Part shown: one piece after another, positions 16,981 to 40,604 of the stretch
How the letters are laid out: each line of letters opens with the position of its first letter
Numbering within the stretch: position 1 is the first letter of the stretch
Assembly: GCA_947646585.1 (NCBI GenBank)
Contig: CANSHD010000001.1
Coordinates: forward strand, 248,617-312,616
Reading direction: 5' to 3'
Source of the DNA: an uncultured Alphaproteobacteria bacterium
GTDB lineage: Bacteria; Pseudomonadota; Alphaproteobacteria; Rs-D84
Length of the DNA stretch: 64,000 nucleotides
Translations under genes and position numbers: made by a program
The notes under the pieces: generated by a model
The model's input: only the letters and a program-made list of their open reading frames with translations
Databases searched by the model: none
What the model was told of the DNA's origin: nothing

Positions 16981-17060
16981 GTTCGTGGTGACAAAGGTGT
17001 GTAATTGTTTGCTTCGTCCCAATTGTCACCGCGAGCGCAGCGTGGCGGTCCAGTAAATAT

Positions 17061-17088
17061 TTGCAAAGTGCAACTTTTCTGTTATAAT
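17061..17088 (+). promoter_or_regulatory. sigma70-like promoter TTGCAA-16-TATAAT (closely resembles the tRNA-Val promoter)
   Basis: ttgcaaagtgcaacttttctgttataat vs ttgcaatccgatttttctttgttataat at 36435. Confidence 0.4.
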
Positions 17089-17158
17089 TCCCAATGCATC
17101 GGGTGATACCCGGTGTGAGGTGTCATAACCTCTGAAAACATTAAAACTCCACGATTGG

Positions 17159-25632: not shown

Positions 25633-26052
25633 ATGAAAATTAAAAACTTTGCTATGCTGGCGGGCGTTGCAGGCTTGTTGGCTGCTTGCGGTGGTTCTTC
25701 CAAAATCACAGAACCGGCCGATTTGAATGACCAGCGCGTATTCTTCGCGTTCAATTCCTCGGAAATTTCCGAAGATGCGAAAAACAACCTGCTGGGCCAG
25801 GCTCTGTACATGAAGAATCACGAAGATGTTAAGATTCAGATTGCCGGTAACTGCGACGAACGCGGTTCCACAGACTACAACTTGGCTTTGGGCGCACGTC
25901 GTGCCAACGCGGCCAAGGAAGTCATCGTAAAAGACGGCATTGACGCAAAACGTATTTCCACGATTTCCTATGGCAAGGAACGTCCGTTGGTTCAGGGCAG
26001 CGGCGAATCCGTATGGAAATGGAACCGTAATGCAACAACAACTGTTAAATAA
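25633..26052 (+). CDS. pal: peptidoglycan-associated lipoprotein (OmpA-family)
   Basis: lipobox LLAACG; OmpA-like domain NCDERGSTDYNLALGARRANAAKEVI. Confidence 0.85.
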   Translation: MKIKNFAMLAGVAGLLAACGGSSKITEPADLNDQRVFFAFNSSEISEDAKNNLLGQALYMKNHEDVKIQIAGNCDERGSTDYNLALGARRANAAKEVIVKDGIDAKRISTISYGKERPLVQGSGESVWKWNRNATTTVK

Positions 26053-26082
26053 TAACAGTCTGTTGAGTTATAGTGATTGTTT

Positions 26083-26112
26083 GAAAACACCGGCGATTGC
26101 CGGTGTTTTTTC
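26083..26112 (+). terminator. rho-independent terminator after pal
   Basis: aaacaccggcgattgccggtgtttttt. Confidence 0.8.
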
Positions 26113-26126
26113 ATTCCGGTATTAAA

Positions 26127-26210
26127 CTGGATTGCCACGGTCGTTTCACTCCCTCGCAATGACAGCGAGCCTGGAACGATTGTCATTGCGAACGAAGTGA
26201 AGCAATCCAG
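26127..26210. repeat. MITE/REP-like nested palindromic element, copy A
   Basis: outer IR ctggattgc/gcaatccag; inner IR ctcgcaatgacag/ttgtcattgcga. Confidence 0.8.
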
Positions 26211-26237
26211 TAAATGATGAACATCGCCGCTTTATTC

Positions 26238-26341
26238 GGAATTGCCGCGTCGGCGTAATCGCCTCCTCGCAATGACAGTGGCGGGTAATGTTGCAATTTA
26301 TCTCCATTGTCATTGCGAGCCCCAACGGGGCGTGGCAATCC
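26238..26341. repeat. MITE/REP-like nested palindromic element, copy B (tandem to A)
   Basis: ggaattgcc..cctcgcaatgacag..ttgtcattgcgag..ggcaatcc. Confidence 0.8.
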
Positions 26342-26343
26342 AT

Positions 26344-26376
26344 AAAAAAGACCGGCATTTGCCGGCCTTTTTTATG
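26344..26376. terminator. bidirectional terminator downstream of parB
   Basis: aaaaaagaccggcatttgccggccttttttatg. Confidence 0.7.
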
Positions 26377-26379
26377 TTT

Positions 26380-27258
26380 TTATTTGCAGATTTTATCGAC
26401 GATTTCCTGCATTTGGGTGCGTGTTGAAAACGACAGCACAATCTGCCCCGCCCCGCCGCGTCGTTCGGTTATTTTCGCCGCCGTGCCCAGGGCGGATTTT
26501 ATGCGCGCCTCTATATCGCGGCGCATGTCCGCATCCATATTGTTTGATGAAAAAGCCCGGCTTTTCCCGGCGCGCGGCCCCTGCTTTACCATTGTGGCAA
26601 TCTGTGCCACCGGTATCTTTTCGTTCACGATTTTATGGGCCAGTTCTTCCTGATTCTCGGCCACGGCAATAGTACGCGCCGCCGACGCGGACAGTTCGCC
26701 CCGCTCCACCATCGCCTTTACGGAATCGGCCAGGTTTGTTAAACGCATTATGTTTCGGATATAGCTTTCCGATTTCCCAATCAGGCGCACGACGTCGGCC
26801 AAATCGTATCCGCATTTTTCCATTAAGTTCTGGTATGCGGCGGCCTCTTCCATCGGGTTTAAATTTTCACGCTGAACATTTTCAATCAATGCGATTTCCA
26901 TCGCGTTTTCATCGTTCAGTGTTTTTACCAACGCCGGAATTTCGGTCAGCCCCGCCAGCTTGCTGGCGCGATAGCGGCGCTCGCCCGCGACGATTTCGTA
27001 CATATGCGCACGTCCCGAAACGGCGCGCAATAAAATCGGCTGTAATACGCCCTTTTCCTTGATTGACGCGGCCAGCTCCTGTAACTCCGCATCGGTAAAT
27101 GTTTTACGCGGCTGGTCCGGGTTCGCACCGATTTGTGCCAACGGGATTTGTTTTACCACAACACGTTCGGCCCCGGTTAATATGGAAAAGTCCGGAACTT
27201 GTCCACGTTCTGATTGTAATTCGGCCCATCCTTTGCCAAGTCCAAATTTTGAAGACAT
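26380..27258 (-). CDS. parB: chromosome partitioning protein ParB
   Basis: ParB box IVAGERRYRASKLAG..IPALVKTLNDENAMEIALIENVQREN; 292 aa. Confidence 0.92.
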   Translation of the reverse strand: MSSKFGLGKGWAELQSERGQVPDFSILTGAERVVVKQIPLAQIGANPDQPRKTFTDAELQELAASIKEKGVLQPILLRAVSGRAHMYEIVAGERRYRASKLAGLTEIPALVKTLNDENAMEIALIENVQRENLNPMEEAAAYQNLMEKCGYDLADVVRLIGKSESYIRNIMRLTNLADSVKAMVERGELSASAARTIAVAENQEELAHKIVNEKIPVAQIATMVKQGPRAGKSRAFSSNNMDADMRRDIEARIKSALGTAAKITERRGGAGQIVLSFSTRTQMQEIVDKICK

Positions 27259-39155: not shown

Positions 39156-39548
39156 ATATCATTATTTGCTGATATACGCTTGGCTTTTTATTTTTTGCGA
39201 TAATTGAATTATATTCAGACTCGGTTTCCAAATCCATTGCATTGCACATAATGTATATCGGTATGTCGGCATGGATTCTGGCGGCCTCTATGCGTTGCCC
39301 GGTCAGCATCTGAATTCCCCCGTGATTTTATAAAGAAAAAACCATCGGAATAAAATTCAGATGGCTGGAGGTTCACTACTATAATCAGCTATAGCGTCGC
39401 TTATTCAATATATTCGCGACCCTCCAGCCAGTGGTTGGAGATTTTCTGTTTTTTACAAACAGGCTGAAAAGGGGTAGCGAACCCCGCCCACGGAATACCC
39501 GCCGGCAAATATATTATATATTGAATAAAAACAATTTGCAAATAATTA

Positions 39549-39651
39549 CTGGATTGCTTCGGCATTCGCCTCGCAATGACAAAGGCGCGGAATGTTGCGC
39601 TTCATCACTCTTGTCATTGCGAGGAGGGCATAGCCCGACGTGGCAATCCAG
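39549..39651. repeat. MITE/REP-like nested palindromic element, copy C
   Basis: ctggattgc..cctcgcaatgaca..ttgtcattgcgagg..ggcaatccag; same family as 26127-26341. Confidence 0.8.
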
Positions 39652-39728
39652 TCAATGATGTATACGATTTATTTGCGATTGCAAATTTTTATGTCTATAA
39701 TTTACCCGTGATTTATTAAGGAGGACGT

Positions 39729-40604
39729 ATGTCATCTGTATTTGTATTCCCGGGCCAGGGCGCGCAGAGCGTCGGCATGGGCCGCGAATTGTATGAAACA
39801 AACCCGGCCGCCCGCGCCGTGTTTGATGAGGTGGACGCGGCATTGGGTGAAAAATTGACGGATATTATATTTAACGGTCCGGCGGACGATTTGACGTTAA
39901 CGCGCAATGTTCAGCCTGCGATTATGGCCACGTCCATTGCGATGCTGCGCGCGTCGGGTGCCGAATTGCCGGAATATGTGGCCGGCCATTCTTTGGGCGA
40001 ATATACGGCGCTGTGTGCGTCGGGTGCATTGTCTGTGGGCGATGCGGCGCGTCTGTTGCGTGCGCGCGGCGACGCAATGCAAAGCGCGGCCCCGGCCGGA
40101 ACCGGGTTAACCGCGGTTATTATCGGTATGGATATTGATGCGCTGCGCGGGCTGTGCGATGGCACGGATGCGGATGTTGCAAACGACAACTGCCCGGGCC
40201 AGGTTGTGATTTCCGGTGCCAAAGACGCGGTTGAATGCGTCATGGCCGCGGCAAAAGAGGCGGGTGCCCGTCGTGCAATGCCGCTGGCGCTGTCGGTGCC
40301 GGTTCATTGCCGTATGCAGGCCCCGGCCGCGGACGCCATGCGCGCCGCGTTGGAGCAGGTGGAGATTAAAAAGCCGTCGGCGACATTTATCGCGAACAAG
40401 ACCGCCGATGTCATGATGGACCCGGCCGAAATAAAGGAAGAATTGATTTATCAAATGACGCATGGTGTGCGCTGGCGCGAAAGTGTTCTGCGTATGCATG
40501 CGCTGGGTATTACGGAAATGACAGAGGTCGGCCCCGGCAACGTTTTAACGGGCCTGTGCGGCAGAATTTGTTCTGAAATTAACGCAAAAAAATTGGAGAT
40601 ATAA
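39729..40604 (+). CDS. fabD: malonyl-CoA:ACP transacylase
   Basis: FVFPGQGAQSVGMG; active-site GHSLGEYTAL. Confidence 0.9.
   Translation: MSSVFVFPGQGAQSVGMGRELYETNPAARAVFDEVDAALGEKLTDIIFNGPADDLTLTRNVQPAIMATSIAMLRASGAELPEYVAGHSLGEYTALCASGALSVGDAARLLRARGDAMQSAAPAGTGLTAVIIGMDIDALRGLCDGTDADVANDNCPGQVVISGAKDAVECVMAAAKEAGARRAMPLALSVPVHCRMQAPAADAMRAALEQVEIKKPSATFIANKTADVMMDPAEIKEELIYQMTHGVRWRESVLRMHALGITEMTEVGPGNVLTGLCGRICSEINAKKLEI

Follow-up and report, generated by a model that had tools for sequence, protein, structure and literature searches.

The CGTC-tagged REPs were defined by Di Nocera, De Gregorio and Rocco (2013, BMC Genomics 14:522; PMC3733652), with dRS3 of Neisseria and RPE-4 and RPE-6 of Rickettsia among their members. 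In these repeats, the head CGTC (often TGTC) is unpaired, the stem starts with AT and the tail is of 3 nt and close to CCA; they occur mostly as head-to-head dimers with conserved spacers, mostly in Alphaproteobacteria. No dedicated transposase was apparent and no associated enzyme was reported. REPs generally lie downstream of genes, and action at the RNA level has been proposed (PMC3733652).

Chenal et al. (2025, Nat Commun 16:2388; PMC11893778) described the Neisseria NTS (CGTCATTCCCGCGMAVGCGGGAATCYRG) and related SRM motifs, which flank ssnA, the gene of a 94-aa single-domain GIY-YIG protein (CDD cd10448), in the layout NTS-ssnA-NTS. SsnA recognises its motif exclusively in single-stranded DNA, where it cleaves a few nucleotides 5' of the motif. 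It acts neither on double-stranded DNA nor on RNA or the reverse strand, and RNA is not bound. Binding and cutting were demonstrated for the Neisseria and Wolbachia homologues only. The SsnA/NTS system modulates natural transformation in N. meningitidis, and the authors pointed to its IS-like layout and to the analogy with REP/RAYT (PMC11893778).

Three nested-palindrome elements lie at 26127-26211, 26237-26343 and 39549-39651 of the 64-kb stretch of DNA analysed here (the window). The best explanation, to which we assign a probability of roughly 0.78, is that each consists of two head-to-head copies of a REP-type hairpin repeat tagged with (T/C)GTC, and that this repeat is an ATTGC-stem class of the SRMs that accompany Ssn GIY-YIG nucleases. 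Against it count the lack of an Ssn-type gene in the 64 kb, the failure of all six units to match the published SRM search pattern and the weak folding of single units as DNA. The ATTGC class is a further sequence class of a system published in 2013 for the repeats and in 2025 for the nuclease, and not a new kind of element.

The elements of the window and the anatomy of their unit

The original prediction described two tandem nested palindromes of ~100 bp and a third copy elsewhere in the window. Reading of the sequence, a covariance-model scan and folding all bear out the nested inverted repeats at 26127-26341 and the third copy at 39549-39651; the size was roughly right, although the copies are not uniform (85, about 107 and 103 bp). 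Copy 1 (26127-26211) reads CTGGATTGC..CCTCGCAATGACA, a 16-nt loop and TGTCATTGCGA..GCAATCCAG, with both arm pairs intact. Copy 2 (about 26237-26343) has the same inner arms around a 30-nt loop, a degenerate left outer arm (GGAATTGC) and the right outer arm GCAATCCAT. In copy 3 (39549-39651), inner and outer arm pairs are intact and the loop again measures 30 nt; the loops of copies 2 and 3 are homologous, at ~63% identity by eye (alignment A1). The 11-mer TCGCAATGACA occurs exactly six times in the window, always in three inverted pairs, against a mean of 2.1 matches in shuffled sequence even when one mismatch is allowed. The 9-mer outer arm by itself is not significant (19 matches against 15 expected) and needs the inner arm beside it to become so.

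Outer and inner arms correspond to the two ends of a single unit, its tail and its head, and the nested palindromes of the window are therefore head-to-head dimers. The repeats originally predicted are real, but each nested palindrome is better understood as one hairpin unit present in two inverted copies. The unit spans 31-41 nt in the window and 30-45 nt across loci. Its TGTC head is unpaired; then come a basal stem of 5 bp (ATTGC/GCAAT), an internal loop that is conserved, an apical mini-hairpin that is variable and covaries, and a CCAG tail, with the consensus 5'-(T/C)GTC ATTGC GAG [variable small hairpin] CG(A/T)(A/G) GCAAT C(C/T)(C/A)-3'. In short, the class can be written TGTCATTGCGAG-hairpin-CGAAGCAATCCAG, where TGTCATTGCGAG is the head and GCAATC(C/T)(C/A)G the tail. 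The loci yielded 735 units, 489 of them distinct, the commonest forms being TGTCATTGCGA-GCGAAGCGAA-GCAATC and TGTCATTGCGA-GGAGCGAAGCGACGAA-GCAATC. According to sequence logos, the first head position is T in 77-84% and C in 12-14%, followed by GTC and then ATTGC. The basal stem of 5 bp leads into an internal loop of 2x3 nt and an apical stem of 2-8 bp, and the distance from head block to tail block ranges from 8 to >40 nt.

A covariance model of the unit (R1) was trained on 71 rows (alignment A3), mainly units of other organisms, with one window unit (26308-26343) included. Its scan of the 64 kb returned six half-units at 29-44 bits (E 5e-5 to 1e-8), the runner-up reaching 12.7 bits (E 0.56). 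In dimer 1, unit 1L (TGTCATTGCGAGGGAGTGAAACGACCGTGGCAATCCAG; 26127-26164, minus strand; 36.0 bits, E 9.5e-7), whose DNA fold has the ATTGC/GCAAT basal stem and an apical stem, is separated by a 16-nt head-to-head spacer, the central loop (26165-26180), from unit 1R (TGTCATTGCGAACGAAGTGAAGCAATCCAGT; 26181-26211, plus strand; 31.8 bits, E 1.1e-5). Dimer 2 comprises unit 2L with its degenerate tail (GCAATTCC; 26237-26277, minus strand; 29.2 bits, E 4.6e-5), a 30-nt central loop (26278-26307) homologous to that of dimer 3, and unit 2R (TGTCATTGCGAGCCCCAACGGGGCGTGGCAATCCAT; 26308-26343, plus strand; 44.1 bits, E 1e-8, as a unit that is also a training row) with the apical hairpin CCCC/GGGG. Similarly, dimer 3 consists of unit 3L (39549-39581, minus strand; 39.7 bits, E 1.2e-7), a 30-nt central loop (39582-39611) and unit 3R (TGTCATTGCGAGGAGGGCATAGCCCGACGTGGCAATCCAG; 39612-39651, plus strand; 38.0 bits, E 3e-7) with the apical hairpin GGGC/GCCC. 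Five of the six window units have the CCA tail, the exception being 2L. The motif AGT(A/C)AATGATG, which had been predicted as a conserved tail of the copies, does follow copies 1 and 3, but it is missing after copy 2, and its first bases, CCAG(T), belong to the conserved tail of the unit.

Folded as single-stranded DNA, the whole dimers reach -23.7, -28.9 and -32.2 kcal/mol and are far more stable than shuffles (z -5.5 to -7.2; 0/200 shuffles as good). As DNA, a unit taken singly forms no more than a modest hairpin (-2.2 to -8.1 kcal/mol, z -0.7 to -2.0), compared with -8.9 kcal/mol and a z of -4.3 for the canonical NTS. The minimum-free-energy folds of dimers 2 and 3 resemble a cloverleaf or four-way junction; this was dropped as the functional form because the single unit is the recurring module.

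The pairing was followed in 71 units of the 16-nt class, all distinct. Their basal stem hardly varies (99% paired), and all five apical pairs are changed on both sides. Cells changed on both sides number 40, compared with 7.5 in shuffles (0/500 as high), and 87% of the apical cells are paired, compared with 23-54% when the partner columns are slid. It is therefore the structure of the apical hairpin that is conserved, and not its sequence. About half of the units have a tandem G·A/A·G mismatch (GGAGC..GCGAC) in the apical part. Besides head-to-head dimers, the unit is found singly, tail-to-tail and in clusters.

One further stretch of the window, at 17024-17053 (plus strand), has the form TGTC-ACCGC-GAGCGCAGCGTG-GCGGT-CCAG and scores only 12.7 bits with R1 (E 0.56). 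Across 17024-17090 (TGTCACCGCGAGCGCAGCGTGGCGGTCCAG), the basal stem ACCGC/GCGGT replaces ATTGC/GCAAT with all five pairs kept. Its 3' flank (CCAGTAAATATTTGCAAA; TAAATATTTGCAAA) is common to an element in L029, and a promoter-like TTGCAA-16 nt-TATAAT follows that flank. Judged by its letters, this could possibly be a variant-class unit standing alone.

Spread of the family across genomes

The inner-arm pattern TCGCAATGACA-N10-40-TGTCATTGCGA matches 12 viral contigs of IMG/VR and at least 119 stretches of GTDB representative genomes from about 16 phyla, as taken from the record titles. Among the matches listed are Chloroflexota, Planctomycetota, Desulfobacterota, Bacillota, Pseudomonadota, Cyanobacteriota, Campylobacterota and Nitrospinota, along with Nitrospirota, Patescibacteria, Fibrobacterota, Spirochaetota, Bacteroidota, Hydrogenedentota, Elusimicrobiota and WOR-3. 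Both outer arms, GATTGC and GCAATC, are present in 107 of 151 inner-arm instances. Whole dimers, loop included, recur at unrelated loci of related alphaproteobacterial MAGs with 76-87% identity: dimer 1 is 85-87% identical to dimers in L029 and L034, and dimer 2 matches dimers in L026 and L058 at 76-77%. The REP-type character that had been proposed for the elements is upheld by their intergenic position, their multiple copies and their presence at unrelated loci in many genomes.

With only three dimers in 64 kb, one could suppose that the palindromes arose by chance or by a purely local duplication and form no family. However, the six exact 11-mers stand in inverted pairs, the same arms occur at >130 loci of other organisms, and dimers of 85-87% identity lie at unrelated loci of other MAG species. 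Further, five short-read assemblies break in unit 2R, as expected of a multi-copy repeat. Because the family is very widespread, the elements are not just three copies explained by a single local duplication, and an origin by chance or by local duplication alone is refuted.

Six loci (L002, L006, L033, L084, L099 and L128) show tandem partial heads, that is, TGTCATTGCGAG and ~12-15 nt without a tail, inside or beside dimers; these may be the footprint of unit copying. In L045, a remnant of the Nextera adapter (TGTGTATAAGAGACAG, positions ~41-56) directly precedes an element, an untrimmed adapter in a public MAG contig. Translation of the units gives spurious small ORFs at 39431-39658 (plus strand) and at many other loci, with peptides such as ..SPRNDK.. 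and ..SLRGG.., and the same translated-repeat peptides made up several ORF clusters in the BLAST of flanking ORFs. Translated units are a likely source of false "hypothetical proteins". A literature search by sequence string returned only unrelated primer matches.

A recurrent GIY-YIG gene beside the units

All-versus-all BLAST of the ORFs within 1.2 kb of elements revealed one recurrent real family, a GIY-YIG protein of ~95 aa; the remaining clusters were repeat translations or small groups in at most five loci. The proteins measure 93-97 aa, and their sole Pfam match is the GIY-YIG catalytic domain. The fetched DNA, ~0.9 Mb in all, has six GIY-YIG ORFs, each at most 250 nt from an element, and in L127 the gene sits between two elements. 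The association also holds in the reciprocal direction. When 80 metagenomic loci (of at least 593) were fetched with the protein alignment alone, 74 had a unit head (at most one mismatch) within 300 nt of the gene, where we estimate the chance expectation at ~0.01 per locus. Heads are densest in the 100 nt next to the gene ends and have all but vanished at distances above 700 nt.

Loci typically read TGTCATTGCGAG..GCAATC – gene – GATTGC..CTCGCAATGACA, with the spacing TGTCATTGCGAG..CGAAGCAATC, 5-40 nt, the gene, 0-20 nt and GATTGCTTCG..CTCGCAATGACA. Of 77 loci, 53 have their nearest upstream unit pointing to the gene, and 56 of 75 have an inverted unit as the nearest one downstream. Gene-proximal units also form tail-to-tail dimers, tandem partial units, head-to-head dimers and BIME-like clusters, and tandem neighbours in the same orientation account for 77 of 246 neighbour pairs near ssn genes.

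The nuclease itself is linked to the NTS system by homology. Loci with a canonical NTS were fetched from IMG/VR, and six GIY-YIG ORFs on them match an HMM of five ATTGC-class proteins with E-values of 1e-25 to 1e-33; a canonical NTS copy adjoins four of the six. Comparison of the ATTGC-class proteins with the NTS-flanked proteins by hhalign gave 99.6% probability, E 3e-24 and 38% identity over 89 columns, a link that runs via the NTS-flanked proteins and not via N. meningitidis SsnA or cd10448 themselves. The same geometry is seen with NTS in L266, as CGTCATTCCC..GGGAATCCAG – gene – CTGGATTCCC..GGGAATGACG. NCBIfam, PADLOC and PHROGs hold no model specific for the nuclease, and a PDB sequence search returned only UPF0213 proteins and UvrC, weakly, the UPF0213 proteins being the nearest solved structures. 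No paper treating GIY-YIG together with REPIN/RAYT was found in the literature.

The recurrent neighbour bears on the two explanations by transposition. A classical MITE would be an internally deleted IS whose terminal inverted repeats are recognised in trans by a DDE transposase and which inserts with a target-site duplication. Elements of ~100 bp with inverted termini (CTGGATTGC/GCAATCCAG), intergenic and in multiple copies, would suit this description, and MITE was half of the label first given to them. However, no direct repeats border the three elements or the related alphaproteobacterial copies; instead, the palindrome only continues into the flanks by one base (ACTGG/CCAGT). One and the same 35-nt hairpin unit has the two arms as its ends, and it also occurs singly, tail-to-tail and clustered; the sole recurrent neighbour is the 95-aa GIY-YIG nuclease, not a transposase. 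As neither a target-site duplication nor a parent IS with matching terminal inverted repeats was found, the MITE label has been given up, and we regard this origin as extremely unlikely.

A classical REPIN, in which two REPs are mobilised by a RAYT (an HUH/Y1 tyrosine transposase), is only slightly less improbable and still very unlikely. It would account for the architecture, since two inverted hairpin units with a conserved spacer lie in an intergenic position between convergent genes in both cases (PMC3733652). The head, however, is TGTC or CGTC and not GTAG, and the GIY-YIG protein is the sole recurring protein family in ~0.9 Mb of flanks, as judged by a clustering test and not by a targeted Y1 HMM search. 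Further, no transposase association was found for the CGTC-tagged REPs by Di Nocera et al. (PMC3733652).

The 64-kb window contains no Ssn-type gene, which is why the original prediction missed it. The tail-to-tail spacer between dimers 1 and 2 (26212-26236) corresponds in layout to the place that the ssn gene takes in gene-bearing loci (L132-L211), and it is empty here. This spacer has only ~25 nt, ATGATG included, and by its letters would be either an empty cassette or one that was deleted. The AATGATG tail was considered as a remnant of an ssn start and rejected; the 14-codon ORF after copy 1 has, on inspection, no similarity to Ssn.

Genomic setting, probable mechanism and relation to known systems

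Copies 1 and 2 do lie between pal and parB, as predicted; the flanking gene is specified here as an OmpA-family (Pal-like) gene (25633-26052, plus strand) that converges with parB (26380-27258, minus strand), behind which parA is found. The pal gene shares 84% nucleotide identity with the MAG "uncultured Rickettsiales UMGS860". Outside the repeats, terminator-like hairpins follow the Pal-like gene (26084-26111, plus strand) and parB (26341-26376, minus strand), and copies 1 and 2 sit between them. Copy 3 is located in a 573-nt spacer between the end of a 187-aa ORF (39155) and the start of a gene (39729) labelled fabD-like by eye.

The terminator-like 28-mers at 26084-26111 and 26346-26373, on either side of the four units, are 82% identical, and both resemble the lone terminator after pal in the relative L034. 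From these sequences, the two may be one bidirectional terminator duplicated around an insertion, or a coincidence. Five independent short-read assemblies with an identical ParB (L332-L335 and L337) stop exactly 67 nt past the parB stop, at ~26313 of the window, inside the head of unit 2R; the repeat therefore breaks assemblies. The ENA contig L336 runs through the same spacer of 327 nt. Among the contigs with an identical ParB, each either breaks in the repeat or has this spacer, so that presence/absence polymorphism was not seen, and no filled/empty site pair was obtained with the relative L034, whose synteny stops directly after the pal terminator.

This setting also bears on the possibility that the elements are structured RNAs, such as a 3'-UTR stabiliser, a terminator or a small RNA acting after transcription, with the DNA repeat being secondary. 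In favour are the covariation of the apical stem, in which some cells of the unit strand are G-T (G-U), and the general position of REPs downstream of genes, where action as RNA has been proposed (PMC3733652). However, no meaningful Rfam family was matched, either at gathering thresholds on the whole window or in a permissive scan of 26000-26450. For both convergent genes, dimers 1 and 2 are situated past the terminator-like hairpin, and both unit orientations occur relative to neighbours. In addition, head and tail are conserved alongside a gene for a DNA nuclease, and SsnA does not bind RNA (PMC11893778). Altogether, we consider an RNA element quite unlikely, and at most a side effect, though the least improbable of the rival explanations, and retain the reading as Ssn-accompanied DNA repeats.

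For these repeats, the most likely mechanism is the following. When DNA becomes single-stranded, during replication or as incoming transforming or conjugative DNA, each unit would fold into its basal stem, internal loop and variable apical stem. By analogy with SsnA, the cognate Ssn nuclease would bind the hairpin together with the unpaired TGTC head and the CCAG tail and would nick the single strand a few nucleotides 5' of the head, which in a head-to-head dimer is the central loop, on either strand. Because loops are conserved between copies and between related genomes, the dimers, loop included, would be the unit that is copied within and between related genomes, in the manner of REPINs. 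They would accumulate in harmless intergenic spots, such as the position distal to two terminators or the long spacer upstream of fabD, and the window copies would be passengers. We infer that an Ssn specific to the ATTGC class, of the "YIMTN…GSR" clade, recognises and cuts it, that the repeats owe their spread to Ssn and that an ssn gene lies somewhere in the source genome.

A bolder extension is that the ~0.45-kb cassette of unit, ssn and inverted unit is selfish and self-sufficient, an element spread by horizontal transfer through about 16 phyla, gene-less dimers such as those of the window being non-autonomous derivatives multiplied in trans by Ssn nicks. We offer this tentatively, as a possibility that is rather doubtful at present. 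If it were true, the 95-aa GIY-YIG nuclease would be the functional counterpart of the RAYT transposase and among the smallest known enzymes that propagate mobile elements, and the partial head duplications in the loops of other genomes and the apparent terminator duplication around the four units (26084-26373) would be its footprints.

The advance is a modest one. It consists of a sequence class that is very widespread, whose composite hairpin tolerates insertions and which goes with its own clade of Ssn-like proteins. An anonymous repeat of a gut alphaproteobacterial genome is now assigned to a recently characterised repeat/nuclease system. A recognition sequence can be predicted for a distinct clade of Ssn nucleases, enzymes of practical interest as site-specific cutters of single-stranded DNA. 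For annotation, the class accounts for frequent spurious small ORFs and contig breaks at unit sites.

The REP/REPIN-RAYT systems, reportedly the work of Nunvar (2010), Bertels and Rainey (2011) and Ton-Hoang (2012), resemble the present one in several respects. In both, the unit is a small hairpin whose tetranucleotide head is unpaired, inverted dimers are probably what replicates, clusters are BIME-like and inverted units flank the enzyme gene itself; in both, too, the hairpins are recognised in single-stranded DNA, on the Ssn side according to the literature. They differ in that RAYT systems combine a GTAG head with an HUH/Y1 transposase, whereas a (C/T)GTC head is combined here with a GIY-YIG nuclease. 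To our knowledge, no covalent-intermediate strand-transfer chemistry has been described for GIY-YIG enzymes.

The elements come closer to the CGTC-tagged REPs, with which they share the (T/C)GTC head, the stem starting with AT and the tail of about CCA. All three window elements are head-to-head dimers, with loops conserved between copies 2 and 3 and with the dimers of related MAGs. Like those REPs, they are intergenic, lie between convergent or co-directional genes and are frequent in Alphaproteobacteria. However, the CGTC-tagged REPs have a continuous stem of 8-9 bp and a loop of 4-5 nt, in place of the 5-bp stem, internal loop and apical stem seen here, and the association with a GIY-YIG gene sets the present class apart from them and aligns it with Chenal 2025.

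Compared with the SRMs, the ATTGC class differs in being found in about 16 phyla, Chloroflexota, Planctomycetota, Bacillota and Patescibacteria among them, and the window differs in having no ssn gene. The NTS stem is continuous (ATTCCCGC), whereas the present unit has the 5-bp ATTGC/GCAAT stem, a conserved internal loop and a variable apical hairpin. The published SRM pattern, HGTCWYN(0-2)YYVSBRHN(0-5)WNVSBRGN(0-2)RNCYNB, matches the canonical NTS as a control and none of the six window units; it is a search tool made by hand from 29 genomes and not a definition of the family. Its sole match in the window, at 40238-40271 (CGTCATGGCCGCGGCAAAAGAGGCGGGTGCCCGT) inside the fabD-like ORF, is most likely due to chance and shows how permissive the pattern is. 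As the ATTGC class escapes this pattern, surveys based on it may undercount SRMs. Like the SRMs, the units are hairpin-forming motifs of 20-50 nt oriented by a conserved 5' head (HGTC) and a 3' CYRG-like tail, their tail being C(C/T)(A/C)G. The NTS, CGTCATTCCC..GGGAATCCAG, and the window unit, TGTCATTGC..GCAATCCAG, have the GTCATT head and the AATCCAG tail in common. Collectively, the two classes share an unpaired (C/T)GTC head, a stem starting with ATT, a hairpin and an AATCCAG tail; their units are intergenic, multi-copy and clustered around the gene, and inverted units flank a single-domain GIY-YIG gene of ~94 aa, which for the ATTGC class is seen in other organisms.
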